Assembly: GCA_050252545.1 (NCBI GenBank)
Contig: JBFWKS010000001.1
Coordinates: 3,932-67,931 of the forward strand
From: Solirubrobacteraceae bacterium
GTDB taxonomy: Bacteria > Actinomycetota > Thermoleophilia > Solirubrobacterales > Solirubrobacteraceae
Direction of reading: 5' to 3'
DNA: 64,000 nucleotides
In this document: one piece after another, positions 19,229 to 51,823 of the stretch
Layout of the letters: each line of letters begins with the position of its first letter
How positions within the stretch are numbered: the first letter of the stretch is position 1
Translations under genes and position numbers: made by a program
The notes under the pieces: model-generated
The model's input: the letters and a program-made list of their open reading frames with translations, nothing else
The model's database searches: none
What the model was told of the DNA's origin: nothing

Positions 19229-19452
19229 ACCCCCACGGTACCAGCAGAGGCCGTGTGGTACTCGCCGAATTCAGGCGCTTCCCCCGATCGGTGGGATCGG
19301 CGCACATGTCCGCGGTGGTTCGGGAGTACAGGGCGCCATCAACCGGCACTGCTGGGAGAGATATGAGACCAGCCGGATGGGGTATGAGGCGCCCCAGACG
19401 GAGTACTGCAGAGCGCAGAATAGTACGGCCGGGGCCAGCCGGTAGACGAGAA

Positions 19453-19468
19453 TCTCCCGTCCGGGGTA
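19453..19468. promoter_or_regulatory. Candidate regulator site A (TCWCCCG-N2-CGGGWGA family) upstream of Mce operon
   Basis: TCTCCCG-TC-CGGGGTA; similar to sites at 42428, 48514 and 51713. Confidence 0.45.
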
Positions 19469-19472
19469 TGGC

Positions 19473-19489
19473 GTGGACAAGCCGTCCAC
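19473..19489. promoter_or_regulatory. Perfect 17-bp inverted repeat, candidate PucR-family site
   Basis: GTGGAC-AAGCC-GTCCAC. Confidence 0.5.
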
Positions 19490-19632
19490 TGGGAGCCTGA
19501 CCGTGGTTCAGGGGGGAGACCCGGCCGAGGTCACGGAGCGGGCGACGCGTGCGTCGTTCCGACGAGTGCTCGCCGGACCGCGGTCGGTCCCCCTGCGGAA
19601 CACCAACGATGTTGCGAACGGCGGACACGACC

Positions 19633-20115
19633 ATGGAGCACCAGCCACCCCCCGGACGACCGAGCCGCGACGACGCGGACTCGGTGGCGATGGTGCGTGA
19701 GCGCGCCGATGTCGGCCATGCTGCGGGTGCGTGGCGGCGGGTTCTGGAGTTGTGGGACAAGGCGGCCGAGGATGAGGCCGCCCGTCGGTTGCTCGGGCGT
19801 GTCGGTCGTACGGTTCGGTTGTCGTCGTCGGATCTGCAGGACGCGTCGATCGTGATCCGTCTGCAGGGCGATATCGAGCTGATCGAGGATCGTGCGGAGC
19901 CTGCTGACATCGAGCTGACGATGGGCACCGCGGATCTGGAGCGTCATGCTGACGGGACGTTGCGTGTCGCGATGGCGATCGCCGCGGGGCGGGCGACGTT
20001 CACCGGGCCGGTTCGCGAGTTCCTGCGGGTGATCCCGATCGTCCACGCGATCGCCAATCCGCCGGTGGCCGTGGGGACCAACACCGACTTCGACGTCCAG
20101 GACGGGGAGTTCTGA
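19633..20115 (+). CDS. SCP2 sterol-carrier-like lipid-binding protein
   Basis: ADIELTMGTADLERHADGTLRVAMAIAAGRATFTGPVREFL aligns by eye to the SCP2 core of the 45390-45791 protein; TGATG coupling to the ATPase. Confidence 0.65.
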   Translation: MEHQPPPGRPSRDDADSVAMVRERADVGHAAGAWRRVLELWDKAAEDEAARRLLGRVGRTVRLSSSDLQDASIVIRLQGDIELIEDRAEPADIELTMGTADLERHADGTLRVAMAIAAGRATFTGPVREFLRVIPIVHAIANPPVAVGTNTDFDVQDGEF

Positions 20116-20990
20116 TGAGCACCACCACCTCTGCCGGCGCCGCCGATCCCGCGACCGCTGCGCTGTTGGACAAGGCCGCCGATTACGACCATCACGAGGG
20201 CGGCATGGTCGTGCCGCAGCGTGATCCGGGCGATTTCTGGTCGATCGAGTGCGTCGATCTGTACAAGTCGTTCGGGTCCAACCGGGTGATGAACGGCCTG
20301 AACGTCGGCATCCCGGAGGGGATGATCACGGTCATCCTCGGCCCGTCGGGCACCGGCAAGTCGGTCTTGCTGAGCCACCTGATCGGGTTGATGTTCCCCG
20401 ATCAGGGCGACATCCTCGTGCACGGCCAGTCGGTGCCGGACATGACGATGAAGCAGCTGCTGGAGATGCGGCGCAAGTTCGGGATCCTGTTCCAGGACGG
20501 CGCGCTCTTCGGATCGATGTCGGTGTACGACAACGTCGCGTTCCCGTTGCGCCAGCACACCGACTTCGACGAGAAGCAGATCCGCGACATCGTGATGGGC
20601 CGCCTCAGCGAGGTCGGCCTCGCGGGTGGGGCGGAGCTGCGGATGCCGGCCGAGTTGTCCGGCGGGATGAAGAAGCGTGCCGGGTTCGCGCGGGCGCTGG
20701 TCCTCGATCCGCAGATCGTCATGTTCGACGAGCCCGACTCGGGTCTGGACCCGGTCCGCACCGCGCTGCTCTGCCAGCTGATCGAGAAGGTGCACTCCGA
20801 GAACGGCGGCACCTACGTCGTCATCACCCACGACATCGCGTCCGCCCGACGGATCGGCGAGTACATCGCCGTGCTGTGGAAGGGCCGGATCGTGCAGTCC
20901 GGTGACCGCGACGACATGTTCGACTCCCCCAACCCCTTCGTCCGCCAGTTCCTGGCCGGCCGCCCCGGCGGCCCGCTCGGGATGGAGTGA
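20115..20990 (+). CDS. mceG: Mce/Mla-type ABC transporter ATPase
   Basis: Walker A GPSGTGKS, LFQDGALF, LSGGMKKR, FDEPDSGLDP, ITHD. Confidence 0.9.
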   Translation: MSTTTSAGAADPATAALLDKAADYDHHEGGMVVPQRDPGDFWSIECVDLYKSFGSNRVMNGLNVGIPEGMITVILGPSGTGKSVLLSHLIGLMFPDQGDILVHGQSVPDMTMKQLLEMRRKFGILFQDGALFGSMSVYDNVAFPLRQHTDFDEKQIRDIVMGRLSEVGLAGGAELRMPAELSGGMKKRAGFARALVLDPQIVMFDEPDSGLDPVRTALLCQLIEKVHSENGGTYVVITHDIASARRIGEYIAVLWKGRIVQSGDRDDMFDSPNPFVRQFLAGRPGGPLGME

Positions 20991-21011
20991 CCCGACCCCG
21001 GGATCGAGCAC

Positions 21012-21884
21012 ATGGCGACCACCACACAACCCGCGACAGGACGCGTCGGTCCGTCCGGTCAGCCGACCGGGCCGGTCGACGGGCCCCCACCAGGCCGCAA
21101 GAGCGCCGGTCCGCTGGCACTGCTCGAGCAGATCGCGGACATGCTCATCCTCGCGTGGCGGACGCTCATCGCGGTCTTCACGCCGCCGTACTCCTGGCGC
21201 GACGAGTTCATCGAGGAGACCTGGATCATCATCCGGCGGTGCGCGATCCCGCTGATGATCTCGGCGACCGCGTTCGGCTTCGGGGCGCCGGGCCTGCAGG
21301 GCGGCAACCTCGTCGGCCTGCTCGGCACCATCGACCGGCTCGGCTCGTTCTTCGTCATGGCGTCGGTGCGGGAGTTCGCCCCGTGGATCACCGGCATGGT
21401 CGTGGCCGGCATCGGCGGCACCGCGGTGTGCGCCGACCTGGGCGCCCGCAAGGTCCGCCAAGAGCTCGACGCGATGATCACCCTGGGCCTCGACCCGGTG
21501 CGCACGATCGTCGCCCCCCGGTTCCTGGCGCTGGGCATCGTCACCGCCGCGATGAACCTGATCGCGATCATCATGGGCGTCGTCGGCGGCTGGCTCGCCG
21601 CGGTCGTCGTCTTCGGCGAGACGAGCGCCGGCTACTTCAGCACCTTCACCTCGAACTTCACCGTCCCGGACCTCCTGGGCAGCGTGCTCAAGACGACGCT
21701 GTTCGGCTTCATCGTCGCCGTCGTCTGTTGCTACAAGGGCATGCACACCAAGGGCGGTGCCGAGGGCGTCGGCCGGGCCGTCAACCAGGCGGTCGTCATC
21801 TCGTTCGTCGCCATCTGGGCGTTCAACTACGTGTTCACCACGACGTTGCTGGCCGCCTTTCCCGAGACGGGGAGCCTGCGATGA
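21012..21884 (+). CDS. yrbEA: YrbE/MlaE permease A
   Basis: VREFAPWITG, CADLGARKVRQELDAM, GGAEGVGRAVNQAVV. Confidence 0.9.
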   Translation: MATTTQPATGRVGPSGQPTGPVDGPPPGRKSAGPLALLEQIADMLILAWRTLIAVFTPPYSWRDEFIEETWIIIRRCAIPLMISATAFGFGAPGLQGGNLVGLLGTIDRLGSFFVMASVREFAPWITGMVVAGIGGTAVCADLGARKVRQELDAMITLGLDPVRTIVAPRFLALGIVTAAMNLIAIIMGVVGGWLAAVVVFGETSAGYFSTFTSNFTVPDLLGSVLKTTLFGFIVAVVCCYKGMHTKGGAEGVGRAVNQAVVISFVAIWAFNYVFTTTLLAAFPETGSLR

Positions 21885-22735
21885 GCACCGAGGCACCTCC
21901 CGGCTCCCGCCGGCCCCTGCGGCCGTCCGCCGGTCAGACCCTCGCCGAGGGCCTCGTCGGCCCGGTCCGCGGCACCCTGCGCGAGCTCGGAGAGATGACC
22001 CGGTTCTCGGGCCGCGCGGTCGTCGAGATCCCCGGGTCGTTCCGCTACACCGCGGAGATCCTGCGCCAGGCCGGTCTGTTGATCACCGGTTCGGCGATCG
22101 TCATCTGGGGCATGCAGTTCGTGATGGGCATGCAGTGCGCCACCGAGGCGAACTACGTGCTCCGCGGCTACGGCGCGTCCGCCTACTCCGGGGTGTTCAC
22201 CGCGCTGTGCGGCGCCCGCGAGATGGGCCCGTACATGTGGGGCTACATCGTCGCGGCCAAGATCGGCTGCGGCCTCGTCGCCGAGCTCGGATCGATGCGG
22301 ATCAACAACGAGTTCGACGCGATGGAGTCGGTCGGCATCAACCCGATGCGGTACGTCGTCGCCACGCGTCTCGTCGCCGCCTGGCTCGCCTTCCCGCTCC
22401 TCTACCTCGTCGGTCTGGCCTTCCACACGCTGGCGGACTTCTTCGTGATCGTCACCCAGATCAAGGAGGTCTCGCGTGGCGGGTTCGAGACGATCCACTG
22501 GCAGTTCGTGGGCCTGATGGACATCATCTATTCCGAGATCAAGATCATGGCCATGGGGACGCTCATCGTCCTGGTCGCCATGTACTACGGGTTCACCGCG
22601 CGCGGCGGACCGTCCGGAGTGGGCACCGCCACCGCCAAGTCGATGGTCCTCAACCTCGTCGTCGTCCACGTCGTCGGGTCCCTCCTGACGATGGTCTTCT
22701 GGGGCCTCGATCCCAGCTTCCCGGTCGGAGGGTGA
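21881..22735 (+). CDS. yrbEB: YrbE/MlaE permease B
   Basis: AKIGCGLVAELGSMRINNEFDAMES, GGPSGVGTAT. Confidence 0.9.
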   Translation: MSTEAPPGSRRPLRPSAGQTLAEGLVGPVRGTLRELGEMTRFSGRAVVEIPGSFRYTAEILRQAGLLITGSAIVIWGMQFVMGMQCATEANYVLRGYGASAYSGVFTALCGAREMGPYMWGYIVAAKIGCGLVAELGSMRINNEFDAMESVGINPMRYVVATRLVAAWLAFPLLYLVGLAFHTLADFFVIVTQIKEVSRGGFETIHWQFVGLMDIIYSEIKIMAMGTLIVLVAMYYGFTARGGPSGVGTATAKSMVLNLVVVHVVGSLLTMVFWGLDPSFPVGG

Positions 22736-22740
22736 CCCTG

Positions 22741-24045
22741 ATGCGTTCGATTCTGCGGCGGCCCTGGCCCGTCATCATCGTCGTGGGCATCGCGTTCCTC
22801 GGCTGGAAGGCGCTCAGCGATCGCCAACAGGAGTACGAGGTCCAGGCGGCGTTCGACTCCGCGGTGAACCTCACCACCGGCCTCGACGTCCAGATGCGTG
22901 GCGTCGACGTCGGAAAGGTCGCCGGGGTCCGGTACGAGGACGGCAAGGCGATCGTCTCGATCGGGGTCTCCGACGACCGTGTGTTCCCGCTCCGCAGGGG
23001 AACGAAGGCGACGATCCGATACGGCACGACCGTCGGCATCGGTACGCGCTACGTCGAGCTCCTCCCCGGACCGAAGGACGCACCGTCGATCCCCGACGGC
23101 GGCACCATCGCGTCGAAGGACGTCACGACCCCCGTCGAGCTCGACGAGGTGTTCAACACCCTCAACCCGGAGACGCGGGAGCGGCTCACGTCGCTCGTCG
23201 GCAACTCCGCTGACGTCACCGCCGGCCGGTCGAAGGAGCTCAACCGTGGCCTGCGGACGCTGCCGGGTGGGGTGCGGACCACCGGTGACGTCATGGGCGA
23301 CCTGCTCGCCGACGAACAGGCGATCCGTGCGCTCGTCGTCAACGGTGAGCGGGTCTCCCGAACGCTGGTGAGCCGCACCGGCGCGATCAGCGAGACGATC
23401 ACGGCCGCGCGACGGACGCTCGACGCGTTCGGCAACAGCGCCGACGGGGTCCGCGCCTCGATCGACGGCTTGGCCCCGACGTTCCGCCAGGCGCGCTCGA
23501 CCCTGCGTCGCGCCGACGGCAGCCTCGAGAAGGTCCGCACCCTCATCCGTGCCGTCGAACCCGGGGCCAAGCGGATCCCGGCGCTCGCCCGCGCGGCGCG
23601 CCCGGCGCTCGTGCGGCTGCAGCAGGTCACGCCCGTGGCGCTCGCCACGCTGCGGACGACCCGTGACGGCGCGCCGGCGGTGACGGAGCTCCTCGACAAG
23701 GGCCGCACCACGCTCCCGGCCGCGGGCACCGCGATGAAGACCGCGAACCCGATGCTCGCCTGCGTCCGGGCGTACGTCCCCGAGATCGCCGGGATGCTCG
23801 GCACCTGGGGCGGGGCGACGAAGAACTACGACGACCGGGGCCACTTCGGGCGGATCTTCGTGCGCGAGGGCGTCACCTCCCTGAACGGGCTGATCCCCGA
23901 CGCGGCGCTCCCGACCCTCCTCGGCCACAAGTTCGCGATGCCCCGACCGCCCGGACTCAACGCCGGAGCGGTGCACTACCCCGAGGAGTGTGAGGTGTCC
24001 GCGGACGCGCTCGACCCGACCAAGGACGTGGAGGCGGTCCGGTGA
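22741..24045 (+). CDS. MCE/MlaD family protein 1
   Basis: N-terminal TM, LTTGLDVQMRGVDVGKV, GTRYVELLPG, long helical region. Confidence 0.9.
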   Translation: MRSILRRPWPVIIVVGIAFLGWKALSDRQQEYEVQAAFDSAVNLTTGLDVQMRGVDVGKVAGVRYEDGKAIVSIGVSDDRVFPLRRGTKATIRYGTTVGIGTRYVELLPGPKDAPSIPDGGTIASKDVTTPVELDEVFNTLNPETRERLTSLVGNSADVTAGRSKELNRGLRTLPGGVRTTGDVMGDLLADEQAIRALVVNGERVSRTLVSRTGAISETITAARRTLDAFGNSADGVRASIDGLAPTFRQARSTLRRADGSLEKVRTLIRAVEPGAKRIPALARAARPALVRLQQVTPVALATLRTTRDGAPAVTELLDKGRTTLPAAGTAMKTANPMLACVRAYVPEIAGMLGTWGGATKNYDDRGHFGRIFVREGVTSLNGLIPDAALPTLLGHKFAMPRPPGLNAGAVHYPEECEVSADALDPTKDVEAVR

Positions 24046-25475
24046 ATCCGAAGATCCTCAGCACCGCGCTCGCGGCGGTCGTCGCGATCGTCGGCGTGAT
24101 CCTCCTCACCAGCGGTGGGGACGACGACGCTTACCAGGTCCGGATCGTCTTCGACGACGCCGGAGGCCTCGTCGAGAACGGCGACGTGAAGATCGGCGGC
24201 GTCGTCGCCGGGCGGATCATGAAGCTGCAGGTCACCGACGACGACCTGGGTGAGGCGATCGTCGAGCTCAAGGAGAACGCCGCCCCGATCGGACGCGGCG
24301 CCCGGGCCCGGGTCCGTCCCGTGAACCTCCTCGGCGAGAAGTACGTCGACCTCGACGCCGGTGACGTCCGCTCGCCGGAGCCGTCCGGGGTCGTCATCCC
24401 GCCCGGGCGGACCTCGGCGCCGGTCGAGCTCGACGACGCGATCAACATCCTCGATCCGGACAGTCGGGCGCGCCTTCGGATCCTCATCAACGAGACCGGC
24501 ATCGCTCTCGGCGGCAAGGGGACCGACCTCAACGCGACCCTCGCCCGTCTGCCCCGCGCCCTCGACGAGGCCGAGGAGCTCGTGAAATCGATCTCCGACA
24601 CGGGAAAGATCGACCGGCTCATCACCGACGGTGACCGCGTGCTCGCGGCCTTCAACGACGGACGCGACGACCTGACCGGCATGGTCGACTCGGCGGCGCG
24701 GACGCTCGCGGTCACCGCGCGCCTGCGGCAAGACCTGGGCCGGACCCTCGACGCCGCACCCGCCACCCTGACGCAGCTGCGCTCGACGCTCGTGAAGCTC
24801 GCGGGCACGGCGACGCGCCTGGAGCCCGCCGCCGTCGAGCTCCGTCGCACCGCGGGACCCCTCGCCGCGACGCTCAAGTCGGTCCCCGGCTTCCGGAGCG
24901 CGGCGGCGCCGACTCTGTCGCAGGTCCGGACGGTGTCGCCGAACCTCTCGCGCCTGGCGCGAGAGGCCTCGCCCACGATCCGGCGCCTGCAACCGCTCTC
25001 CGACGATCTCGTCACGTTCTCCCGGGCGCTCGATCCGGTGACGCGCATCCTCGACGTCCAGACCAACCCGCTGCTGCGCGTGATGGAGGGCTGGGCCCGC
25101 ACGATCCAGATGCGGGACGGTCTCGGGCACCTCTTCCGGACCGAGGTCACCGTCGACGAGGAGCTCCTCACGACGCTGCTCGTGCAGCTCCAGCCGGCGC
25201 CGACCGCGAACAAGCGCTCCCGCTCGGACGCGGACGACAAGCCGAGCGTCGCGGCCCGGAAGACGCCCCGATCGACGACTCGACGGCTGACGCCGGGCCC
25301 GGATCCGGCGCCGACCGCGACCGCGCGGACCCCGGACGACCGGTCGTCGTCCACGTCGACGGGGACGCCGCCCCCGGATCCCGCCGCGACGACCGGGGTG
25401 CCGTTGCTCGACGGCGCGGTCGGCGCGGTCGGCGGGGCCCTGACCGACCTCCTCGACTCCCTCCAAGGCCGATGA
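24042..25475 (+). CDS. MCE/MlaD family protein 2
   Basis: GLVENGDVKIGGVVAGRI, LLGEKYVDL; Pro/Thr-rich C-terminal tail. Confidence 0.9.
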   Translation: MNPKILSTALAAVVAIVGVILLTSGGDDDAYQVRIVFDDAGGLVENGDVKIGGVVAGRIMKLQVTDDDLGEAIVELKENAAPIGRGARARVRPVNLLGEKYVDLDAGDVRSPEPSGVVIPPGRTSAPVELDDAINILDPDSRARLRILINETGIALGGKGTDLNATLARLPRALDEAEELVKSISDTGKIDRLITDGDRVLAAFNDGRDDLTGMVDSAARTLAVTARLRQDLGRTLDAAPATLTQLRSTLVKLAGTATRLEPAAVELRRTAGPLAATLKSVPGFRSAAAPTLSQVRTVSPNLSRLAREASPTIRRLQPLSDDLVTFSRALDPVTRILDVQTNPLLRVMEGWARTIQMRDGLGHLFRTEVTVDEELLTTLLVQLQPAPTANKRSRSDADDKPSVAARKTPRSTTRRLTPGPDPAPTATARTPDDRSSSTSTGTPPPDPAATTGVPLLDGAVGAVGGALTDLLDSLQGR

Positions 25476-26770
25476 CCTCCCGACGCCGCTCCCGCCGTTT
25501 CTCCCGCGCGGCCAGCGCGACCCTGCCGCGGCCGGTGCTCTGGCTGCTGGGCCTGGGCGCCCTCGCCGCGGTCGCCGCCATGGCCTGGGTCGGGTTCAAC
25601 GCCCCGAACTCGATCCCGGGACGGAGCTACTACACCGTCCAGGCGGAGTTCGAGGACGCCAACAACCTGACCGGCCACTACGAGGTCCGCATCGCCGGCC
25701 GGCGCGTCGGCCAGGTGCTGAACCCGCGGGTGGTGGACGGCAAGGCCGTCGTCGACCTCCAACTCGAGCCCGACGTCGCCCCACTGCGGTCCGACACCAA
25801 GCTCCGGGTCCGTCCGCGCAGTGCGATCGGCGTCCGGTTCGTCGACGTCAGCCCGGGCGTGAAGGGGCGCCCGCTCGAGGAGGGCGACACGATCGCCGCG
25901 GCGAACACGTCGACCGTCGTCGAGCTCGACGAGGTCCTGGGCACGCTGGACGCACGCCGCCGGGTCGACGCCCGTACCGTCGTCCAGGAGCTCGGCACGG
26001 GCTTCGCCGGACGGGGCGAGGAGCTCAACGAGATGCTCGACGGCACCCCGACCGCCCTCGACCGGGTGGCTCGCGTCGCCGGCGAGATCAACGCTCGGGT
26101 CGGAGCGATGAGCGGGCTCATCGAGGGACTGGCCGGAACGCTCGGCGCGATCGATCCGGCGCGCGACGAGTACGTCAACGCGTTCGACTCGACCTCCCGG
26201 GGTCTGCGCCCGTTCGCGGAGAGCGAGCAGGACCTCGGGGCATCGCTCGACCGGGCCCCGGCCGCGCTGAGCGTCGCCCGGGCCGGCCTGCGCGACGCCG
26301 ACCCGTTGCTCGACGAGCTGTCCGGCATGGGTCGGGAGCTCGTTCCGGCGCTGCGGCCGGCGCCCGCCGGCCTGCGCCAGGCGGATGCGCTGCTCCGCGA
26401 ATCCCGTGACGGCCTCCGCGCCGCCCGCACGACGCTCCGGCAAGCGGACGACGCGATCCCGGTCACGCTCGACCTGCTGAAGCGCCTCGATCCGGTCATC
26501 CCGACGACGAGCGAGGCGCTGAAGGAATCGCTGCCGACGCTGGGCGAGGTCGGACCGCGCGGGTGCGACATCGCGCTATTCACGAAGAACTGGAGCTCGA
26601 TGCTCGGCCCCGCCGCCGCCGGCGGTGACCCGCGACTCGGCGGCGTGAGCAGCCTGCGTCTGCTCCTCATCGCGTCGCTCGAGAGCGTGATGGGGACCAC
26701 CCAACGGCTCCCGACCGTGATGTCGAACCCGTATCCCAAGCCCTGCACGGTGACGGAGGATCGTCGATGA
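25472..26770 (+). CDS. MCE/MlaD family protein 3
   Basis: LTGHYEVRIAGRRVGQV, IGVRFVDVSPG. Confidence 0.9.
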   Translation: MTSRRRSRRFSRAASATLPRPVLWLLGLGALAAVAAMAWVGFNAPNSIPGRSYYTVQAEFEDANNLTGHYEVRIAGRRVGQVLNPRVVDGKAVVDLQLEPDVAPLRSDTKLRVRPRSAIGVRFVDVSPGVKGRPLEEGDTIAAANTSTVVELDEVLGTLDARRRVDARTVVQELGTGFAGRGEELNEMLDGTPTALDRVARVAGEINARVGAMSGLIEGLAGTLGAIDPARDEYVNAFDSTSRGLRPFAESEQDLGASLDRAPAALSVARAGLRDADPLLDELSGMGRELVPALRPAPAGLRQADALLRESRDGLRAARTTLRQADDAIPVTLDLLKRLDPVIPTTSEALKESLPTLGEVGPRGCDIALFTKNWSSMLGPAAAGGDPRLGGVSSLRLLLIASLESVMGTTQRLPTVMSNPYPKPCTVTEDRR

Positions 26771-30796: not shown

Positions 30797-30811
30797 CCCG
30801 GGCGTGAGAGG

Positions 30812-36105: not shown

Positions 36106-36224
36106 GTGGGGTGCTCCTCGGGTCGGGCCGCGGGCGTCCACGTCGCTGACGCGCGCCGGGCCGGGCTGGTGGTCGGTCGGAACGATCGGTTGGGGCGGGA
36201 GCCGGATCGCCGGCGCCCGGCGGG

Positions 36225-42337: not shown

Positions 42338-42390
42338 GCCAGATCCCTGCTCACCATCACGCGTTGTGGACACCATGACGCCTCGCCCGT

Positions 42391-42420
42391 GCCCCGACGG
42401 GCAGGAGAACCCGTCGGGGC
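42391..42420. terminator. Perfect 11-bp stem hairpin (terminator or operator) between P450 and plsB
   Basis: GCCCCGACGGG-CAGGAGAA-CCCGTCGGGGC; no U-tract. Confidence 0.4.
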
Positions 42421-42427
42421 GACGGAT

Positions 42428-42443
42428 CTCTCCCGGACGGGTG
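42428..42443. promoter_or_regulatory. Candidate regulator site upstream of plsB operon
   Basis: Reverse strand TCACCCG-TC-CGGGAGA; 17 bp (42424-42440) are the exact reverse complement of 51717-51733. Confidence 0.55.
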
Positions 42444-42549
42444 ACCGGGCCGACCCCCCCGTGTGGGGTGGGACGGACCGGCGCGGTGGCGCGCCGGGGT
42501 CACGGTGCGGTCACCCGGACCTTCCGTCCGCCGGGGTCGGCGCGTCCGG

Positions 42550-45361: not shown

Positions 45362-45389
45362 GCGCGAGCGGCCGGTACGGAGCGCACGC

Positions 45390-45791
45390 TCAGACGGCGG
45401 CGCCGTCCTTCTCCGCGACCATCTCGCGGTACATCGGGAAGAGCGGCTTGGTCAGCGGCACGAGCTTGAGGATCTTGGCGACCGGGCCCTTCGCCTTGAC
45501 CTGGCCCTTGGCCAGACCGACGGCGAGGTTGTACTCGCCGCGCCAGAACTTGTCGCCGATGTCCGACGGCATGTAGAGCTTGACGTCGGCGTCCTCGTTC
45601 TCGGTGTCGTCGAGCACCTCGAGCTTGGGCTCGTGCATCTTGATCAGGACCTTCGCGTCCGGATCGCTGTAGTAGACCTGCAGGTCGATGTCGGCGGCGG
45701 CGAGCTTGGCGCCCTCCGGCGTGTCGGCGGCCTTGCGGAACACGCCACCGAGGTACTGCTCGACCTCTTCGCGGTCCTTGAAGTAGGGCAT
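45390..45791 (-). CDS. SCP2 sterol-carrier domain protein
   Basis: KFWRGEYNLAVGLAKGQVKAKGPVAKILKLVP. Confidence 0.85.
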   Translation of the reverse strand: MPYFKDREEVEQYLGGVFRKAADTPEGAKLAAADIDLQVYYSDPDAKVLIKMHEPKLEVLDDTENEDADVKLYMPSDIGDKFWRGEYNLAVGLAKGQVKAKGPVAKILKLVPLTKPLFPMYREMVAEKDGAAV

Positions 45792-46045
45792 CGTCGCTCC
45801 CGTCGTCGGTGATTCACGGCGTGGTGATCACGCCTACGACGAACGTATCCCCGCCCGACCGGTTCGCGCGATCGTCTCGTCGGGGGATGTTCCTCCTCCC
45901 TTCTGCGCGGCGGCGGATGATCGCGCGGGCACAACGGGGAACACGGCGTCATCCGGGGTATCAAGCTCTCCCGATCGACGCATGGGCCGGTCCGGCACGC
46001 GCGGTTAGCGTCGGGCTGCAGCTGTCACAGACCCCGGGAGGACCC

Positions 46046-47146
46046 ATGCAAGCCACCGCCGCCGTGTTGCGCGAAGTCGACAAGCCGATGGTCGTCGAGA
46101 CCGTCCAGATCGACGAGCCCCAGGAGGACGAGGTCCTCGTCGCGATCAAGGGCGTCGGGATCTGCCACACCGACATGACGGTGATGGACGGCACGCTGCC
46201 GATCCCGCTGCCGACGGTGCTCGGGCACGAGGGCGCCGGCATCGTCGAGAAGGTCGGCTCCGCGGTGACGAACGTCGCCCCCGGCGACCACGTCGTCCTG
46301 AGCTTCGGGCACTGTCGCGAGTGCGAGGTCTGCGAGTCCGGCCGGCCCGCGTACTGCGAGCTGTTCGCGCCGCTGAACTACTTCGGCACCCGCCTCGACG
46401 GCACCGTCACGCTGCACAACGGCGACGAGGACGTCCACGGCAACTGGTTCCAGCAGTCGTCGTTCGCCAGCCACGCGATCGCGAAGGCGACCAACACGGT
46501 CAAGGTCACCAGCGACGTGCCGATCGAGCTGCTCGGCCCGCTCGGCTGCGGCATCCAGACCGGCGCCGGCACCGTGCTCAAGGTCCTCCAGCCGAAGGCC
46601 GGTCAGAGCATCGCGATCTTCGGCCTCGGCGGGGTCGGCCTGGCGGCGCTCATGGCCGCGAAGGCCGTCGGGTGCGACCCGATCGTCGCGATCGACACCA
46701 ACGCCGAGCGGCTCGATCTGGCGATGGAGCTCGGCGCCACGCACCGGTTCAACCCGAAGGAGCACCACGACCTGCTGTGGGACGTCCAGCAGGTCACGGC
46801 GTCGGGGGTGGACTTCTCGTTCGAGACCGTCGGGACCGGCGAGATCGTCCGCCAGGCGCTCGAGGTGCTCCGCTCGCCCGGGCACGCCGCGAGCGTCGGG
46901 TTCCGCGGCCTGGAGAACCTGATCACGATCGACCAGGGCCACCTGATGCTCGGTCGCCGGCTGTCGGGCGTCATCGAGGGCGATGCCGACCCGCAGACCT
47001 TCATCCCCGAGATGATCGACCTGTACCGCGAGGGCCGGTTCCCGTTCGACCGGCTGATCGAGAAGTTCACGCTCGACCAGATCAACGAGGCCGTCGAGGC
47101 GTCCGCGTCGGGCCGCGTCATCAAGCCGGTCGTCGTCTTCGACTGA
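46046..47146 (+). CDS. Zn-dependent alcohol dehydrogenase (aryl-alcohol/geraniol dehydrogenase-like)
   Basis: GICHTD, GHEGAG, CRECEVC...YC structural Zn, LGPLGCGIQTGAG, GLGGVG. Confidence 0.92.
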   Translation: MQATAAVLREVDKPMVVETVQIDEPQEDEVLVAIKGVGICHTDMTVMDGTLPIPLPTVLGHEGAGIVEKVGSAVTNVAPGDHVVLSFGHCRECEVCESGRPAYCELFAPLNYFGTRLDGTVTLHNGDEDVHGNWFQQSSFASHAIAKATNTVKVTSDVPIELLGPLGCGIQTGAGTVLKVLQPKAGQSIAIFGLGGVGLAALMAAKAVGCDPIVAIDTNAERLDLAMELGATHRFNPKEHHDLLWDVQQVTASGVDFSFETVGTGEIVRQALEVLRSPGHAASVGFRGLENLITIDQGHLMLGRRLSGVIEGDADPQTFIPEMIDLYREGRFPFDRLIEKFTLDQINEAVEASASGRVIKPVVVFD

Positions 47147-47156
47147 TCCCGGGAGC

Positions 47157-48392
47157 TCAGCCGGTCAGCTCGCGTCCGATCAGGGCGCGGGCGATGACCC
47201 ACTGCAGCACCTCGTTGGCGCCCTCGAAGATCTCCAGGATCTTGGCGTCGCGGTAGATCTCCTCCAGCCGGTAGGTCTCGCCGGTGGCGCCCATCTGCCG
47301 CGCGAACCCGTAGCCGCCGTGGACCTGCAGCGCGTCGCGGGCGACGTCGTTGGCGAGCTTCGTGGCGAACGACTTGGCCATCGACGCCTCCGGCTCGCCG
47401 GACCGGTCCCCGCGATCCAGCCGCACCGCGGCCTTCTGGTACATCGACCGCGCCGCCTCCAGGTGGGTGGCGTGCTCGGCCAGGCGGTACTGCCAGTGCT
47501 GCATCTCGCCGAGCTTGCGCCCGAACAGCTCACGGGTGTGCAACCGCTGGACGGCCAGATCGAGCGCCGCCTGTGCGACCCCGACCCCGGCGGCGCCGAT
47601 CCCGACCCGGCCGGCGGCCAGCGACGCCAGCGCGGCACCCAGGCCCCGGCCCGGCTCGCCGAGGACGTGGTCCTCGGGCACGAAGACGTCCTCCAGCACG
47701 ATGTCGGCGGTGATCTGGCCGCGGTGGCCCATCTTGAGATCGGGCTCCTCGACCCGCACCCCGTCGGCGTGCATGTCCACCAGCAGGAACGTCAGCGCCG
47801 GCCGGTCGCCGTCGCGGCAGAGCATGCAGCACCAGTCGGCCACGACGCTGTTGGTGATCCACCGCTTGCGCCCGCTGACGCGGAAGCCACCGTCGACCGG
47901 CTCGGCGACGGTCTTCAGCGCGGTCGGCGTCAGGTCGGAGCTGGCGTCCGGCTCGGTCGTGGCGAACGCGAACGCCGACTCGCCGCTGATCAACGGGGGC
48001 AGCAGCCGGTCCTGCACGTGCGGGCGGGCGAAGCTCAACGCCCGGGCGTTGAGGATGCACTGCCCGTCGTAGACGCCGGCCATCGACGAGGACTCGTAGG
48101 CGATCTCCTCGGTCACCAGGCAGGTCGCGAGGATCGGGTGCTCGAGCCCTGCGCCGTGCGGGGCGGGGAACGGCACCGCGAAGCACCCCTCCGCCGCCAG
48201 GCCGCGGAACGCCTCCCACGGGAACGAGTCGCGGGACTCCTCGCGCTGGGCGATGTCGCGGGCGACCGGGGCCAGGTGCCGCTCGACCGCGCTCCGTGCC
48301 ATCGACCGGACGTGCTCGACGTCGGGCGGCAGGAACACGTCGTGCCAGGTGCGGTCCTGGGTGCGGGGCGGGTTCGCGGTCGCGTCGCTCAT
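47157..48392 (-). CDS. Acyl-CoA dehydrogenase
   Basis: FATTEPDASSD, GRKRWITN, KMG, EIFEGANEV. Confidence 0.9.
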   Translation of the reverse strand: MSDATANPPRTQDRTWHDVFLPPDVEHVRSMARSAVERHLAPVARDIAQREESRDSFPWEAFRGLAAEGCFAVPFPAPHGAGLEHPILATCLVTEEIAYESSSMAGVYDGQCILNARALSFARPHVQDRLLPPLISGESAFAFATTEPDASSDLTPTALKTVAEPVDGGFRVSGRKRWITNSVVADWCCMLCRDGDRPALTFLLVDMHADGVRVEEPDLKMGHRGQITADIVLEDVFVPEDHVLGEPGRGLGAALASLAAGRVGIGAAGVGVAQAALDLAVQRLHTRELFGRKLGEMQHWQYRLAEHATHLEAARSMYQKAAVRLDRGDRSGEPEASMAKSFATKLANDVARDALQVHGGYGFARQMGATGETYRLEEIYRDAKILEIFEGANEVLQWVIARALIGRELTG

Positions 48393-48513
48393 CCCCCGAT
48401 CCTGACCGGTCGACCTCGCTTCCGCGATCGGCCGTGCGGGAGAGCTTCGCCGTCCGCGCGGGTGACGTGCCGAACGCCCCGCTCACGGCGGGGCCTCGCG
48501 GTGGCGCGGGCGA

Positions 48514-48529
48514 TCGTCCGTCGGGGGGA
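48514..48529. promoter_or_regulatory. Candidate regulator site between acyl-CoA dehydrogenase and acyl-CoA ligase
   Basis: A-TCGTCCG-TC-GGGGGGA-G, 16/18 identical to 51712-51729. Confidence 0.55.
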
Positions 48530-48616
48530 GCGGAACCTCCCGGCGGGCCGATGGCGGTGCCGTACCCCGGTGCGCGAGACTGGGTCGCCCCCATCGCCGA
48601 CGACGGAGATCGCTTC

Positions 48617-50164
48617 ATGCACCCTGGTGCCCACCCTGCCGACCACACCGCCATCGTCATGGCCGACTCCGGGGAGACGGTGACCTACGGCGAGCTCGAC
48701 GCATCCGCCAACCGGATCTCGCGGGTCATGCGCTCCCTCGGCCTCGGCGTCGGCGACCACATGGCGCTCTGCATCGAGAACCGTCGGGAGATCTTCGACG
48801 TCCTCTGGGGCGCCCACGACGCCGGCCTGCTGTACACGGCGCTGTCGACGCGTCTCGGCGCCGACGAGATGGCCTACATCGTCCAGGACTGCGGCGCCCG
48901 CGTGTTCGTGCTGTCGGCCCGCTACGCCGACCTGGCCGACGAGGTCCGTGCCGCCACCCCCGGCGTCGAGCACCACCTGAGCCTCGGTGGCGAGATCCCC
49001 GGGTGGACGGCGCTGGAGGACCTGATGGCCGAGCAGTCCGACCAGCCGCTCGACGAGCAGCGGATCGGCGGCAAGGACATGCTCTACTCGTCGGGCACCA
49101 CCGGGCGTCCCAAGGGCATCCGGCCCAAGGAGCTCGAGGCACCGCTCGACGCCTCCCCGATCATCGTCACGCCGATCCTCGGCGGCAAGCTCGGTGTCGG
49201 TCCCGGGTCGGTGTACCTCACCCCGGCGCCGATGTACCACGCGGCCCCGCTGCGGTTCTCGATGGCGATCCACCAGCTCGGCGGCACCGTCGTGCTGATG
49301 GAGCGGTTCACCCCCGAGCGCGCGCTCGAGCTCATCGCCGGCCACGGCGTCACCCACACGCAGATGGTGCCGACGATGTTCGTGCGGATGCTGCGCCTGC
49401 CCGCTTCGGCGCGCGACGCCGCCGACGTGTCGTCGTTGAAGGTCGTCATCCACGCCGGGGCACCCTGCCCGCGCGAGGTCAAGCAGCAGATGATCGACTG
49501 GTGGGGCCCGATCATCCACGAGTACTACGCGTCGACCGAGGGCGCCGGCCTGACCTGGGTGACGAGCGAGGAGTGGGTCTCGCACCCCGGCACGGTCGGG
49601 CGCGCGGCGATCGGCACCCCGCGGATCCTCGCCGAGGAGGAGGACGTGGAGCTGCCCGTCGGGCAGACCGGCCGGGTGTTCTTCTCGGACGGCCCGCAGT
49701 TCGAGTACCACAACGATCCCGACAAGACCCGTGGCGCGCACAGCAGCCAGGGCTGGTCGACGGCCGGTGACATCGGCCACCTGGACGAGGAGGGGTTCCT
49801 GTACCTCACCGACCGGGCGTCGTTCATGATCATCAGCGGCGGGGTCAACATCTACCCGCAGGAGTCCGAGAACGTCCTGGCGTCCCACCCCAAGGTCATG
49901 GACGCGGCCGTGTTCGGGATCCCCGACGAGGACTTCGGGGAGTCGGTCAAGGCGGTGATCCAGCCGATGGAGATGCCCGCCGACGACGCGGCCGCCGCGG
50001 CGCTGGAGGCCGAGTTGATCGCCCACTGCCGCGCGCAGCTGGCGGACCTCAAGTGCCCCCGCAGCATCGACTTCCGTGCGGAGCTGCCCCGGCACGAGAC
50101 CGGCAAGCTCTACAAGCGCCTGCTGCGCGACGAGTACCGCGAGCGGGCCGCCGCCGGCGCGTAG
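48617..50164 (+). CDS. Acyl-CoA synthetase (AMP-forming)
   Basis: YSSGTTGRPKG, YASTEG, GDIG, IISGGVNIYPQE, ETGKLYKR; start uncertain. Confidence 0.92.
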   Translation: MHPGAHPADHTAIVMADSGETVTYGELDASANRISRVMRSLGLGVGDHMALCIENRREIFDVLWGAHDAGLLYTALSTRLGADEMAYIVQDCGARVFVLSARYADLADEVRAATPGVEHHLSLGGEIPGWTALEDLMAEQSDQPLDEQRIGGKDMLYSSGTTGRPKGIRPKELEAPLDASPIIVTPILGGKLGVGPGSVYLTPAPMYHAAPLRFSMAIHQLGGTVVLMERFTPERALELIAGHGVTHTQMVPTMFVRMLRLPASARDAADVSSLKVVIHAGAPCPREVKQQMIDWWGPIIHEYYASTEGAGLTWVTSEEWVSHPGTVGRAAIGTPRILAEEEDVELPVGQTGRVFFSDGPQFEYHNDPDKTRGAHSSQGWSTAGDIGHLDEEGFLYLTDRASFMIISGGVNIYPQESENVLASHPKVMDAAVFGIPDEDFGESVKAVIQPMEMPADDAAAAALEAELIAHCRAQLADLKCPRSIDFRAELPRHETGKLYKRLLRDEYRERAAAGA

Positions 50165-50217
50165 GACCGACCGGGCCGCCTCGCCGACCGGCGCGGCGGT
50201 CCGGGAGGACGTCGGGG

Positions 50218-50343
50218 GCGGGAGTGTTGCAACACCGGCGTTCCACGTCCGCAACGCAGCACACCCCGCCACCGGCCACCTACCGACTCGGGGGTGCGCT
50301 GCAGAACCGGCGCCCACGGTCCGCAACGCAGCACACCCCCGAG
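50218..50343. repeat. Two tandem REP/MITE-like palindromic units
   Basis: Units 50218-50269 and 50287-50343 share exact GTCCGCAACGCAGCACACCCC (50247-50267, 50319-50339); unit 2 has 15/16-bp terminal inverted repeats. Confidence 0.75.
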
Positions 50344-50387
50344 CCCGCACGGCTCCGCCCGCCGGGCGCAGGCCCGGCGGCGCGCGG

Positions 50388-51677
50388 TCAGGCCTTCTTC
50401 GGGGTCCACGCGGCCTGCGCCGCGTGGATGCCGTGGATGAAGTTGTTGATCTGGAACTCGGGCGGCGCGGTGAGGTGCAGGTCGGGCATGCGGGTGTAGA
50501 CCTCCTGCATCGACGCCTTGATCATCTGCCGGCCGAGCGCCGAGCCGATGCAGAAGTGCGGTCCGCCCGCGCCGAACGCCATGTGCCGGTTGGGCTTGCG
50601 CTGGATGTCGAACCTGCGCGGGTCGTCGAACTGGTCCTCGTCGAAGTTGCCCGAGCAGTACCACAGCACGCACTTGTCGCCGGCCTTGATCTCCTGGCCG
50701 TTGACGACGACGTCCTTGGCCGCGGTGCGCCGGAAGTGCTGGACCGGGCTGGAGTAGCGGAGGACCTCCTCGACGGCGGTGTCGATCCGGCCGTCCATGT
50801 CCTCCCGCAGCAGCGCGAGCTGGTCGGGGTTCTCGTCGAACAGCCGGAACATGTGCCCGATCGAGTGGCGCGTGGTGTCGTTGGCGGCCGACGCGAGCAG
50901 CGAGAAGAACGCGGCGATCTCCCAGTCGTCCAGGGTCCGGTCCTCGAACTTCGCGTTGACGACCCAGCTGACGAGGTTCTCGGCCGGATGCTCGCGGTAG
51001 TGGTCGGCGCGCGCCATCGCGATCGACTGGATCCGGTCGGCCTCCTCGGCGAACGTCGTCAGCGCGTCGCGGCCGAGGGCGCAGTTCGGGTCGTCCCACG
51101 CGAGCATCCGCTCGGCGGCCTCCATGATGGTGTACATGTCGTCGCTGCCGGCGTCGACGCCGAAGAAGAACGCGAAGATGCGGCCCGGGAGCTGCTTGGC
51201 GTACAGGTCGACGATGTCGCCCTCGCCCCGCTCGATGATCTCGTCGACGAGCTCCGTGGCCAGGCCGTTGATCCAGTCGTCGATCTTGCGGACGTTGCGC
51301 GGCGTGAACGCCTGCGACACGATCCCGCGGACCTGCCGGTGGTCGACGCCGTCCATGGCCAGGAACGACGTCGTGGCGAGCGTCACCACCTCGGGCATGT
51401 CCTCCATGAGGATGCCCTTGCCGCTGATGAAGGTCTCCGCGTCGCGGGAGACCCGGCGGCAGTCCTCCCACTTCGTGATCGCCCAGAACCCGGGCGTGTC
51501 GTCGTCCGGGGGCAGCAGCGTCGACTCGTACGCGCGGTGGTACGACACCGGGTGGTTCTCGCGGAAGAAGCGGAACGTGTCGTCACGCTCGATGAACGGC
51601 TTCTCCCAGAAGCTGCGGGCGGCGAGGTCGTGCTCGGGGCTCCACGACGGATGACGGACGTCGACCTGGGTGCTCAT
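50388..51677 (-). CDS. Cytochrome P450, paralogue 2
   Basis: ASAANDTT, EEVLR, FGAGGPHFCIG; clearly homologous to 42550-43869. Confidence 0.95.
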   Translation of the reverse strand: MSTQVDVRHPSWSPEHDLAARSFWEKPFIERDDTFRFFRENHPVSYHRAYESTLLPPDDDTPGFWAITKWEDCRRVSRDAETFISGKGILMEDMPEVVTLATTSFLAMDGVDHRQVRGIVSQAFTPRNVRKIDDWINGLATELVDEIIERGEGDIVDLYAKQLPGRIFAFFFGVDAGSDDMYTIMEAAERMLAWDDPNCALGRDALTTFAEEADRIQSIAMARADHYREHPAENLVSWVVNAKFEDRTLDDWEIAAFFSLLASAANDTTRHSIGHMFRLFDENPDQLALLREDMDGRIDTAVEEVLRYSSPVQHFRRTAAKDVVVNGQEIKAGDKCVLWYCSGNFDEDQFDDPRRFDIQRKPNRHMAFGAGGPHFCIGSALGRQMIKASMQEVYTRMPDLHLTAPPEFQINNFIHGIHAAQAAWTPKKA

Positions 51678-51712
51678 GGTCGAAGTGTCCTCCCGGCCGG
51701 CGCCCGTGACCA

Positions 51713-51728
51713 TCGTCCGTCCGGGAGA
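51713..51728. promoter_or_regulatory. Candidate regulator site between P450-2 and hydrolase
   Basis: A-TCGTCCG-TC-CGGGAGA-G. Confidence 0.55.
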
Positions 51729-51823
51729 GATCCACGTGCCGCGTGGATGAGCCGTTCGTCCCGGAGACCCGTCCCGACCGTGGCCCGGGTCTGTCCCCGG
51801 CGGCGTTGCGTAGCATCCTCGGG

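Follow-up and report, generated by a model that had tools for sequence, protein, structure and literature searches.

A conserved inverted repeat at lipid-gene promoters of a Patulibacter genome, the probable operator of a GAF-LuxR regulator

Introduction

Several described regulators bear on the gene switch considered here. Dimers of NarL prefer inverted heptamers that are 2 bp apart, for example TACCCCTAAAGGGGTA (TACCCCT-AA-AGGGGTA; PMC4549865). DevR, which belongs to the NarL subfamily, combines at every promoter a conserved primary box with a poorly conserved secondary box, arranged in tandem and in helical phase; at tgs1-Rv3131 the two occupy positions -42.5 and -63.5 and are bound cooperatively (PMC3177182). 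In RamA from Corynebacterium glutamicum, a GAF-2 domain (residues 8-146) is followed by a helix-turn-helix (residues 214-274; PMC6691914). DfdR from Rhodococcus sp. YK2 and Terrabacter sp. YK3 is, in the accounts of Iida et al. (2009) given in PMC6099782 and PMC7037279, a sensor of dibenzofuran and further hydrophobic compounds that controls the dfdA promoter. [quoted passage not shown]

Our analysis concerns a stretch of 64,000 nucleotides (the window) from a Patulibacter genome. An earlier note on this DNA had proposed that four lipid-gene promoters share a semi-palindrome that is the operator of one or both of two GAF-LuxR paralogues encoded nearby. Judged by sequence comparison, the inverted repeat is a real, conserved regulatory site of genes for lipid uptake, oxidation, and storage; we consider it probable that a one-component transcription factor binds it as its operator, most likely regulator 2, the GAF-LuxR protein of the cluster, and perhaps regulator 1 as well.

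Results

Gene calls and Pfam matches define a putative lipid-uptake operon (19633-30796, plus strand) that encodes SCP2a, the MceG ATPase, two YrbE permeases, and six Mce proteins; with the addition of NCBIfam, they also define a putative storage-lipid synthesis operon (35290-42376, minus strand) that contains plsB, a HAD-acyltransferase gene, gpsA, and genes for a WS/DGAT and a lipase-like hydrolase. The putative core target genes (45390-52687), annotated from Pfam, solved structures, and start codons, encode SCP2b (minus), ADH (plus), ACAD2 (minus), acyl-CoA ligase (plus), P450-2 (minus), and an alpha/beta hydrolase (plus); the closest solved relatives of P450-2 are CYP268A2, CYP125, and CYP124.

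The repeat is a 16-bp inverted repeat of the form TCTCCCG-NN-CGGGAGA, also found as TACCCCG-NN-CGGGAGA, that is present in both orientations in divergent promoter regions. We count six primary boxes, distributed over five control regions; most of them have a partner box at 22 bp (the scores that follow were obtained with a matrix trained on other species; see below). Box s1 (19453-19468, TCTCCCGTCCGGGGTA; 15.0 bits) precedes the SCP2a ATG by 172.5 bp, in the region that divides the SCP2a-Mce operon (plus strand) from ACAD1 (minus strand). A candidate weak box at 19280-19295 (TCCCCCGATCGGTGGG; 11.5 bits), 52 nt upstream of the ACAD1 ATG, is uncertain, with conservation in the closest relative, G005, that is only partial. 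Box s2 (42429-42444, TCTCCCGGACGGGTGA; TCACCCGTCCGGGAGA on the minus strand) is upstream of the plsB operon, with its centre 60.5 bp from the plsB ATG, and its score of 16.9 bits is that of the top intergenic match in the whole genome; its weak partner (42407-42422, GAACCCGTCGGGGCGA; 4.8 bits) is at exactly -22 bp, on the promoter side. In the divergent region between SCP2b and ADH, box s6 (45967-45982, TCTCCCGATCGACGCA; 14.0 bits) is the proximal box of the ADH promoter, and its distal partner, exactly 22 bp away (45945-45960), is good in the right half, CGGGGTA, only. Box s5 (48428-48443, TCGGCCGTGCGGGAGA; 12.7 bits) is the proximal box of the ACAD2 promoter, centred 43.5 bp from the ACAD2 ATG, with a distal partner at exactly +22 bp (48450-48465, CCGTCCGCGCGGGTGA; 7.0 bits); box s3 (48514-48529, TCGTCCGTCGGGGGGA), upstream of the acyl-CoA ligase gene, scores only 8.1 bits. 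The proximal box of the P450-2 promoter, s4 (51713-51728, TCGTCCGTCCGGGAGA; 13.4 bits), is also centred 43.5 bp from its ATG (51677), and its distal partner at +22 bp (51735-51750; 4.8 bits) overlaps the GTG provisionally taken as the start of the hydrolase gene.

The four main sites listed previously are present where they had been placed, except that the range given for the plsB site was off by one, but four promoters was an undercount: the sites at 45967 (s6) and 48428 (s5) are newly added and were absent from that list. Among the weaker matches that had been named, those at 42407 and 45952 (the half site in the distal partner of s6) score low but are partner boxes exactly 22 bp from a strong box, and the match at 43877 (4.2 bits) is unsupported.

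The position weight matrix was trained only on other species (18 orthologous intergenic regions), which makes its use on this genome non-circular. The de novo search converges on TCTCCCG-AT-CGGGAGA with a log-likelihood of 76.7, compared with 28-37 in six nulls, and a run without the palindrome constraint gives TCTCCCGTTCGGGAGA; thus, other species independently yield the palindrome that had been described as shared by the promoters. At a threshold of 12 bits or more, five of the 86 matches in the genome fall in the window, and all five are intergenic; the scan covered 6.2 kb of intergenic DNA and 57.8 kb of coding DNA in the window, and in the latter no match reaches 12 bits. The contig contains six intergenic matches versus 0.4 expected (Poisson P about 4e-6), that is, the motif is enriched over a composition-matched background.

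Across the genome the number of matches equals the Markov null, so scanning alone cannot define the regulon, and the membership of sites outside the cluster is uncertain. Good boxes among these separate a GAF-LuxR paralogue from an acyl-CoA ligase gene (C50) and two SCP2-like genes from each other (C10); others precede a further GAF-LuxR paralogue (C96), an ACAD gene (C93), and an Mce gene (C78). The earlier note had cautioned that the GC-rich core would occur by chance, and the core CCGTCCGGG alone is indeed near chance (13 matches versus 6.6 expected). It had also pointed to 51717-51733 as an exact reverse complement of 42424-42440; this is correct, although the window contains about 13 such 17-nt inverted pairs and Markov-3 simulations yield about 11 matching 17-mers, so the match is unremarkable on its own and not rare in DNA with 73% GC.

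A cluster of P450, SCP2, ADH, ligase, and ACAD genes together with a GAF-LuxR gene and the motif recurs in six Patulibacter and ten Mycobacterium genomes (the Mycobacterium loci include metagenome-assembled genomes). The motif is conserved in orthologous promoters of G005 and of six Patulibacter genomes, with a footprint across Patulibacter that is kept in six or seven genomes. In an alignment of seven Mycobacterium genomes, it is likewise conserved ahead of the orthologous P450. In G005 the sites are the same or almost the same, and the boxes stand out as conserved islands within diverged spacers; box s1, which is identical, and box s2, which scores 13.0 bits in G005 and whose partner sequence at 42407-42422 is also kept, are both located in such islands. 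Box s4 is identical in G005 and has positional orthologues in seven genomes, and the orthologue of its distal partner is strong in G006 and G015 (TCCCCCGTTCGGAACG, 13.4 bits). For s6, TC[TA]CCCGA[AT]CG is kept in six Patulibacter genomes, and the CCGG core of its distal partner is partly conserved. Box s3, although weak by score, occupies the orthologous position of strong sites in four relatives: TACCCCGTGCGGGAGA (G015) and TACCCCGAGCGGTAGA (G006) are strong boxes with which it aligns column for column, and G004 and G013 also have strong boxes just upstream of the ligase gene. Counting against the operator reading, conservation of the plsB and Mce boxes is limited to G005; the Mce-proximal region of P. 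medicamentivorans contains no strong box, and a Baekduia contig with P450, ACAD2, and LuxR genes contains no box within the 369 nt on hand.

The boxes are paired at a fixed distance. A partner of at least 4 bits is found at exactly +/-22 bp for 10 of the 22 curated boxes, every other offset from 10 to 45 bp provides partners for 0-2 of the 22, and four of 142 chance matches have a 22-bp partner. At the ADH, ACAD2, and P450-2 promoters, the box centre is 36.5 bp from the last T of a TAnnnT-like hexamer (NANNNT; control frequency, 4.7%); these -10-like hexamers are TAGCGT (46006-46011, plus strand; from s6), CAGGAT (48399-48404, minus strand; from s5), and GACACT (51684-51689, minus strand; from s4), respectively. 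The ADH hexamer is kept as TAGCGT or TACGGT in five genomes, and the P450-2 hexamer is kept as GA[GC]ACT in all seven Patulibacter genomes (one has GAGGCT, offset by a base). CAGGAT is only 6 nt before the ACAD2 ATG, which suggests a leaderless transcript; GACACT is also 6 nt before its ATG. Near s1, the distance from the box centre to the end of the hexamer GAGCCT (19493-19498) is 37.5 bp; at plsB no -10-like hexamer fits the spacing, and a search for a sigma-70 consensus promoter found none. The 36.5-bp spacing would place the boxes near -43.5 and -65.5 relative to the predicted transcription starts, that is, over a missing -35 element, as is typical of activators.

This geometry, together with the tandem strong and weak boxes that match those of the activator DevR, leads us to infer activation. 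The opposite mode, in which the same GAF-LuxR protein acts at the same boxes mainly as a repressor that blocks the core promoter or the transcript start until a lipid ligand frees it, is in our judgment unlikely, but several observations point toward it. The centre of the ligase-proximal box s3 precedes the acyl-CoA ligase ATG by 29.5 bp, compared with about 29 bp in G015 and G006; this is a repressor-like position, which counts against activation. If the RBS-like GGGAGGA upstream of P450-2 is genuine, the start would be further upstream and s4 would overlap the core promoter; however, GGGAGGA is not kept in other species, whereas the hexamer is. There are also precedents: in Rhodococcus sp. 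P14 a LuxR-family "NarL" represses a P450 gene via a palindrome over the -10 and -35 (PMC7037279), and NarL itself uses a 7-2-7 site located at the start point to repress frdA (PMC4549865).

For the identity of the binder, the GAF-LuxR gene is the sole regulator found in all versions of the cluster. Regulator 2 (44129-45361, plus strand; Pfam GAF_2 and GerE) has an orthologue in every copy of the core cluster; the best solved relative of its helix-turn-helix is the DNA-bound C-terminal domain of NarL (1je8, E 6e-11), with the recognition helix TVKTHVKH versus TVKVHVKH in NarL. Regulator 2 is the prime candidate; regulator 1 (33596-34879, plus strand; Pfam GAF and GerE), which adjoins a PucR/Rv1453-like gene, is 48% identical to regulator 2 and has the recognition helix GTAKTHVKH, is the second candidate. 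The regulators are 410-427 aa in length and have no receiver domain. The enrichment and conservation of the motif, the presence of GAF-LuxR as the only regulator in all cluster versions, and the NarL-like helix-turn-helix support the proposal that the repeat may be the operator of one or both GAF-LuxR paralogues.

A genome search with regulator 2 gives 33 matches, including 14 full-length GAF-LuxR genes, and many of these at least 14 paralogues share the K-x-H-V-K recognition helix (K-T/S-H-V-K), so the helix does not assign the binder to regulator 1, regulator 2, or another paralogue. The upstream regions of the regulator 1 and regulator 2 genes contain no box, and only two of the 14 paralogues have boxes in their own upstream regions. 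Both observations would fit real operators that are bound by a LuxR/NarL-type protein encoded elsewhere, either another GAF-LuxR paralogue or a response regulator, with the two local proteins recognizing something else. We consider this improbable, because motif-bearing promoters are physically linked to the regulator 2 orthologue in the six Patulibacter genomes and in the ten of Mycobacterium, where one gene string contains both the LuxR gene and the P450 promoter with the box.

The chance that a nearby regulator of another family binds the boxes, either the PucR/Rv1453-like protein (31996-33270) or a TetR protein (16467-17030 or 56331-57101), is smaller still. A PucR-like gene adjoins the LuxR gene in six of seven Mycobacterium loci, as it does regulator 1 here, and a TetR gene is inside the G015 cluster. 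However, a PucR orthologue (at least 48% identity) is found only in G005, G004, and G014; G006, G013, and G015, which have no true PucR orthologue, retain both motif and LuxR gene, and the Mycobacterium locus G122 (P450, SCP2, ADH, and LuxR) keeps the box with no PucR detected. The TetR gene is not conserved across clusters, and inverted heptamers in a 7-2-7 arrangement fit the known NarL/GerE-type binding mode. Hardly credible, and disfavoured here, is that the similarity is a by-product of base composition or that the palindromes are RNA hairpins instead of protein-bound DNA: the near-chance core, the frequent 17-nt inverted matches, the null-level genome-wide counts, and a hairpin-forming repeat after s2 (CCGTCG-CCC-CGACGG) are in keeping with it, but the clustering on the contig, the conserved islands, the 22-bp pairing, and the occurrence in divergent promoter regions in either orientation are not, a 7-bp stem with a 2-nt loop makes a poor hairpin, and the window has no Rfam family match.

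Discussion

In the mechanism that we favour, with the GAF-LuxR protein as activator, a dimer with the NarL-type helix-turn-helix would bind each 16-bp box as two inverted heptamers (TCTCCCG or TACCCCG) 2 bp apart; the strong box would then recruit a second dimer to its degenerate partner, which lies on the same helical face at a distance of exactly 22 bp. For the promoters of ADH, ACAD2, and P450-2, the predicted positions are about -43.5 for the proximal box, which would cover the -35 region, and about -65.5 for the distal one. The ligand of the GAF domain is probably a hydrophobic lipid or acyl-CoA. The switch would co-ordinate lipid oxidation (P450, ADH, ligase, ACAD, and SCP2); in this lineage, it may also govern Mce-mediated uptake and the synthesis of glycerolipids/wax esters (plsB operon). 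If correct, this would be an ordinary type of gene switch, but for a regulator family that is not yet characterised.

The known systems resemble this putative switch in different respects. The three M. smegmatis proteins, compared by domain plan alone, have the same combination of domains. DfdR, which can be likened only by its description in the secondary accounts, is a one-component LuxR-family protein whose gene belongs to a catabolic cluster and whose sensor domain is GAF-like; it acts on aromatic dioxygenase genes, whereas the putative targets here are lipid genes. RamA is an actinobacterial protein with the same two-domain plan that controls carbon metabolism, and its sites are G- or C-runs (A/C/T-G4-6-T/C) that resemble the CCCC/GGGG cores of the boxes. 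However, RamA has about 280 aa, in contrast to 410-427 aa here, the NCBIfam RamA model matches the helix-turn-helix only (28.7 bits versus a cut-off of 500), and RamA governs acetate metabolism as a global regulator whose sites are non-palindromic. NarL of Escherichia coli has a nearly identical recognition helix, and its 7-2-7 site resembles the motif, with T instead of G at heptamer position 7; it is a two-component response regulator for nitrate, and the match spans only the 54-residue DNA-binding domain (50.7 bits versus a family cut-off of 250). DevR/DosR of Mycobacterium tuberculosis differs in having a phospho-receiver domain instead of a GAF domain without a receiver, an 18-bp box with a GGGAC/GTCCC core instead of the 16-bp TCTCCC/GGGAGA, and a box spacing of 21 bp instead of 22 bp. 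It shares with the switch proposed here palindromic boxes for a GerE/NarL-type helix-turn-helix, the tandem arrangement of strong and weak boxes (here at about -43.5 and -65.5 from the predicted starts), and a WS/DGAT-type triacylglycerol synthase among its targets, here a putative one.

Genomic setting and gene map

The window (73% GC) is part of contig 1 of the host assembly, which is fragmented (4.53 Mb in 480 contigs). The nearest relative of the host genome is a Solirubrobacteraceae metagenome-assembled genome (MAG; G005), and the named relatives (P. brassicae, G004, and P. medicamentivorans, G013) place the host in Patulibacter, class Thermoleophilia. Using Pfam, NCBIfam and frame analysis, we mapped ACAD1 (18083-19228, minus strand), an Mce operon with an SCP2-like first gene (19633-30796, plus strand), a PucR/Rv1453-like gene (31996-33270), GAF-LuxR regulator 1 (33596-34879), an operon encoding plsB, a HAD-acyltransferase, gpsA, a WS/DGAT and a lipase-like hydrolase (42376-35290, minus strand), P450-1 (42550-43869, minus strand), GAF-LuxR regulator 2 (44129-45361), SCP2b (minus strand), ADH (46046-47146), ACAD2 (47157-48392, minus strand), an acyl-CoA ligase (48551-50164), P450-2 (50388-51677, minus strand), and an alpha/beta hydrolase (51743-52687).

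The nearest solved relatives of P450-2 are CYP268A2, CYP125, and CYP124, that is, enzymes of terminal hydroxylation of lipid or sterol side chains. P450-1 and P450-2 share ~51% protein identity and exact runs of 25, 27, and 20 nt (43003-43110 and 50781-50888). The ligase and P450-2 genes converge, and the spacer between them carries an exact 21-nt direct repeat, GTCCGCAACGCAGCACACCCC, at 50247-50267 and 50319-50339 (copies 72 bp apart).

A motif trained on other species recovers the boxes

The earlier note described a 16-18-bp semi-palindrome at four lipid-gene promoters and proposed that it is the operator of one or both GAF-LuxR paralogues; we treat it as a 16-bp inverted repeat of the 7-2-7 form TCTCCCG-NN-CGGGAGA (hereafter, the box). 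All four sites were located in the sequence, that is, upstream of the Mce operon (19453), plsB (42429), the ligase (48514), and P450-2 (51713). The 17-nt reverse-complement identity between two of the sites is also present, but we dropped it as evidence, since DNA of 73% GC has many matches of this kind: the window has ~13 such inverted pairs, versus about 11 matching 17-mers in Markov-3 simulations. The caution that the GC-rich core alone would arise by chance was well placed, with 13 matches versus 6.6 expected. A pattern derived from the four sites themselves (4 matches versus 0.41 expected) was rejected because it is circular; when the matrix was built from the sites in the window, its genome-wide match count equalled that of the Markov-3 null, and, lacking enrichment, it cannot define a regulon. 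As supports, the core and the 17-nt match are weak; tests on the sites themselves are therefore either circular or uninformative.

We then trained the motif only on other species, using 18 intergenic regions from orthologous clusters in P. brassicae, two Patulibacter MAGs, P. medicamentivorans, one Baekduia contig, and three Mycobacterium MAGs. In an expectation-maximization search, all of the top seeds converge on TCTCCCG-AT-CGGGAGA, with a log-likelihood of 76.7 versus 28-37 in six nulls; the same search without the palindrome constraint yields TCTCCCGTTCGGGAGA. When the host genome was scanned with this independent matrix (threshold ≥12 bits), five of the 86 matches fell in the window; all five are intergenic (6.2 kb of the window), and the 57.8 kb of coding DNA has none. 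The contig is enriched for the motif, with six intergenic matches versus 0.4 expected (P about 4e-6). The five window matches include three of the original sites (19453, 42429, and 51713) and two new ones, at 45967 (between SCP2b and ADH) and 48428 (between ACAD2 and the ligase). The fourth original site, 48514, scores only 8.1 bits with the independent matrix, yet it aligns exactly with strong boxes upstream of the ligase genes in two relatives (G015 and G006).

Boxes also occur on other contigs of the host genome. On C50, the spacer that separates a GAF-LuxR paralogue from a divergent acyl-CoA ligase gene contains a 16.1-bit box, TCACTCGAACGGGGGA, at 5427-5442; good boxes precede another GAF-LuxR paralogue on C96, an ACAD gene on C93, and an Mce gene on C78. 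A paired box (11.4 and 8.0 bits, 22 bp apart) lies at 7068-7105 on C10 between two divergent SCP2-like genes and is likely an additional regulon member. As a set, the boxes on these five contigs are suggestive of wider regulon membership.

Conservation of the boxes and the predicted core regulon

The boxes are retained in orthologous promoters of both the Patulibacter and the Mycobacterium core clusters. Although the spacers have diverged between the host and G005, the Mce, plsB, and P450-2 boxes lie within conserved islands and match exactly or almost exactly. The ADH-proximal box, TC[TA]CCCGA[AT]CG, is kept in six Patulibacter genomes, and the two boxes at the P450-2 promoter are kept in seven genomes.

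An orthologue of the LuxR gene is found in seven of 151 sampled Mycobacterium genomes; together with two further MAGs, the set comprises ten genomes, seven of them with sequence available upstream of the P450 gene. Six of seven Mycobacterium loci contain the string P450, (SCP2, ADH), PucR, GAF-LuxR; in the exception (G122), PucR was undetected. YAYCCC-N4-GRGAGA occurs at the same position upstream of the P450 gene in all seven aligned genomes, and the box is absent at two loci where a P450 homologue has no adjoining LuxR gene.

The plsB and Mce boxes have a narrower distribution. The plsB box is conserved in G005 only: four other plsB loci lack it, and G006 has a weak version (9.9 bits). No strong box was found in the Mce-proximal region of P. 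medicamentivorans. From this pattern, the predicted conserved core regulon consists of SCP2, ALDH, ADH, P450, ACAD, and ligase genes; judged from these sequence comparisons, the plsB and Mce operons appear to be an extension specific to this lineage.

In P. brassicae (L034:13800-14950), ~1.1 kb of DNA with an ORF separates the operator/-10 region from the ADH start codon; the five other genomes lack this insertion, which may be a mobile element.

Paired boxes and promoter geometry

The boxes follow a grammar that extends the original description, in which a strong box is accompanied by a weak one at 22 bp. A partner of ≥4 bits is located at exactly ±22 bp from 10 of 22 curated boxes, with 0-2 partners at each of the other offsets (10-45 bp); among chance matches elsewhere in the genome, a 22-bp partner occurs in 4 of 142. 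The partners in the window are at 42407-42422, 45945-45960, 48450-48465, and 51735-51750. They explain two of the three weaker matches listed in the earlier note (42407 and 45952), because these are partner boxes; the third (43877) has no support in the matrix scan.

At three promoters, the end of a NANNNT hexamer lies 36.5 bp from the centre of the proximal box: TAGCGT at ADH (conserved in five genomes), CAGGAT at ACAD2, and GACACT at P450-2 (6 nt ahead of the ATG). In the control, hexamers of this kind occur at a frequency of 4.7%. The -10-like GA[GC]ACT at P450-2 is kept in all seven genomes, in one of them as GAGGCT, offset by one base. If transcription starts 7 nt downstream of the hexamer, as we predict, the boxes would be centred at about -43.5 and -65.5, and the ACAD2 and P450-2 transcripts would be leaderless. 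Searches for sigma-70 consensus promoters and for intrinsic terminators found none, and Rfam 15 has no match anywhere in the window at the gathering score.

Several other repeats adjoin the boxes. The 7-N5-7 palindrome ATCCACG-TGCCG-CGTGGAT beside the P450-2 box was rejected as a separate element, its left half not being conserved in G005; the distal partner box is the better reading. This distal box contains the provisional GTG start of the hydrolase (51743); translation may in fact begin further downstream, because the 24 N-terminal residues lack conservation in G005. A second candidate, GTGGAC-N5-GTCCAC (19473-19489, 4 bp downstream of the Mce box), was also discarded; its left half is unconserved in G005 and CCGTCCACTGGGAGCCTG is conserved. 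Downstream of the plsB box (42385-42424), G005 largely retains the inverted repeat CCGTCG-CCC-CGACGG and a further CCCGTCGGGG, which overlap the weak partner box; they may form a 5'-UTR hairpin.

The candidate binding protein

The GAF-LuxR gene is the sole regulator found in every version of the cluster; true PucR orthologues are missing from three motif-bearing genomes. Regulator 2, in the core cluster, is the prime candidate. Both regulators have the one-component plan, that is, a GAF-type domain N-terminal to the DNA-binding domain: with Pfam GerE (cut-off 23.5), regulator 2 scores 72.3 bits and regulator 1 scores 61.2 bits, and Pfam places GAF_2 at residues 126-268 of regulator 2 (49.9 bits) and GAF at residues 205-331 of the longer ORF of regulator 1 (35.2 bits). 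The best solved relative of the regulator 2 helix-turn-helix is the DNA-bound C-terminal domain of NarL, with an almost identical recognition helix; this helix is common to many of the at least 14 GAF-LuxR paralogues in the genome. From the lipid-related targets and the precedent of DfdR, the GAF domain is inferred to respond to a hydrophobic small molecule.

The regions upstream of regulators 1 and 2 contain no box, and autoregulation was rejected: a rank test across the paralogues gave a negative result (P 0.9), with a strong box at only 2 of 14. The position of the ligase-proximal box is repressor-like.

Regulators 1 and 2 share 48% protein identity, yet 34 nt over the recognition helix are identical (34753-34786 and 45256-45289), which could reflect gene conversion or strong constraint. 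Both the GAF-LuxR family (33 query matches, 14 full-length genes) and the PucR/Rv1453-like family (12 query matches) are strongly expanded in the host genome.

Taken as a whole, the box set is a plausible, well-conserved predicted operator and regulon of an unstudied GAF-LuxR subfamily. A broader proposal, which we advance tentatively and with slightly more doubt than conviction, is that GAF-LuxR proteins are a large and as yet uncharacterized family of one-component lipid sensors (at least 14 paralogues here, with members in Mycobacterium) that activate leaderless promoters from DevR-like tandem boxes (a primary box and a 22-bp-phased secondary box); this cluster would supply the family's first operator and regulon, a single switch that couples Mce lipid import, terminal oxidation by a CYP268/124/125-like P450, beta-oxidation, and triacylglycerol/wax-ester storage. 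Such regulators are numerous in Thermoleophilia and also occur in mycobacteria, and the joining of Mce uptake, terminal oxidation, and storage-lipid synthesis among the predicted targets bears on how actinobacteria handle hydrophobic carbon. The analysis offers for testing a 16-bp operator, a two-box promoter grammar, and a few candidate target promoters, for which conservation extends across classes; lipid-responsive biosensors are a possible yield. The advance is incremental because the biology is that of an ordinary transcription factor-operator system.

Comparison with known systems

We found no description of this operator in the literature, where the only characterized GAF-LuxR examples that we found are DfdR and RamA, with none for the mycobacterial proteins; a preprint likewise describes mycobacterial GAF-LuxR proteins as without functional literature (bioRxiv 10.1101/2024.03.06.583649). 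The regulators share the one-component GAF-LuxR domain plan with DfdR and RamA, but they score 28.7 and 26.3 bits with the RamA model (NF041673; cut-off 500), matching in the helix-turn-helix only.

NarL dimers bind inverted heptamers separated by a 2-bp gap, e.g., TACCCCTAAAGGGGTA (PMC4549865). The box has the same 7-2-7 form; the version TACCCCG-NN-CGGGAGA is close to a NarL site, and its half site resembles TACCCCT. In contrast to NarL and DevR, the regulators have no REC domain (Pfam detects GAF and GAF_2 and no Response_reg), and the NCBIfam NarL model gives 50.7 bits against a cut-off of 250, again for the helix-turn-helix only. Because they have no receiver domain and score far below the family cut-offs, the regulators fall outside the NarL/DevR families. 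The hallmark of DevR promoters is a tandem of helically phased boxes, one strong and one weak, at -42.5 and -63.5 (PMC3177182); the promoters described here likewise have a primary box and a degenerate, adjacent, in-phase box, and relative to the predicted starts the proximal box covers the -35 region. By analogy, the mode of action would be like that of a DevR/NarL-type tandem-box activator.
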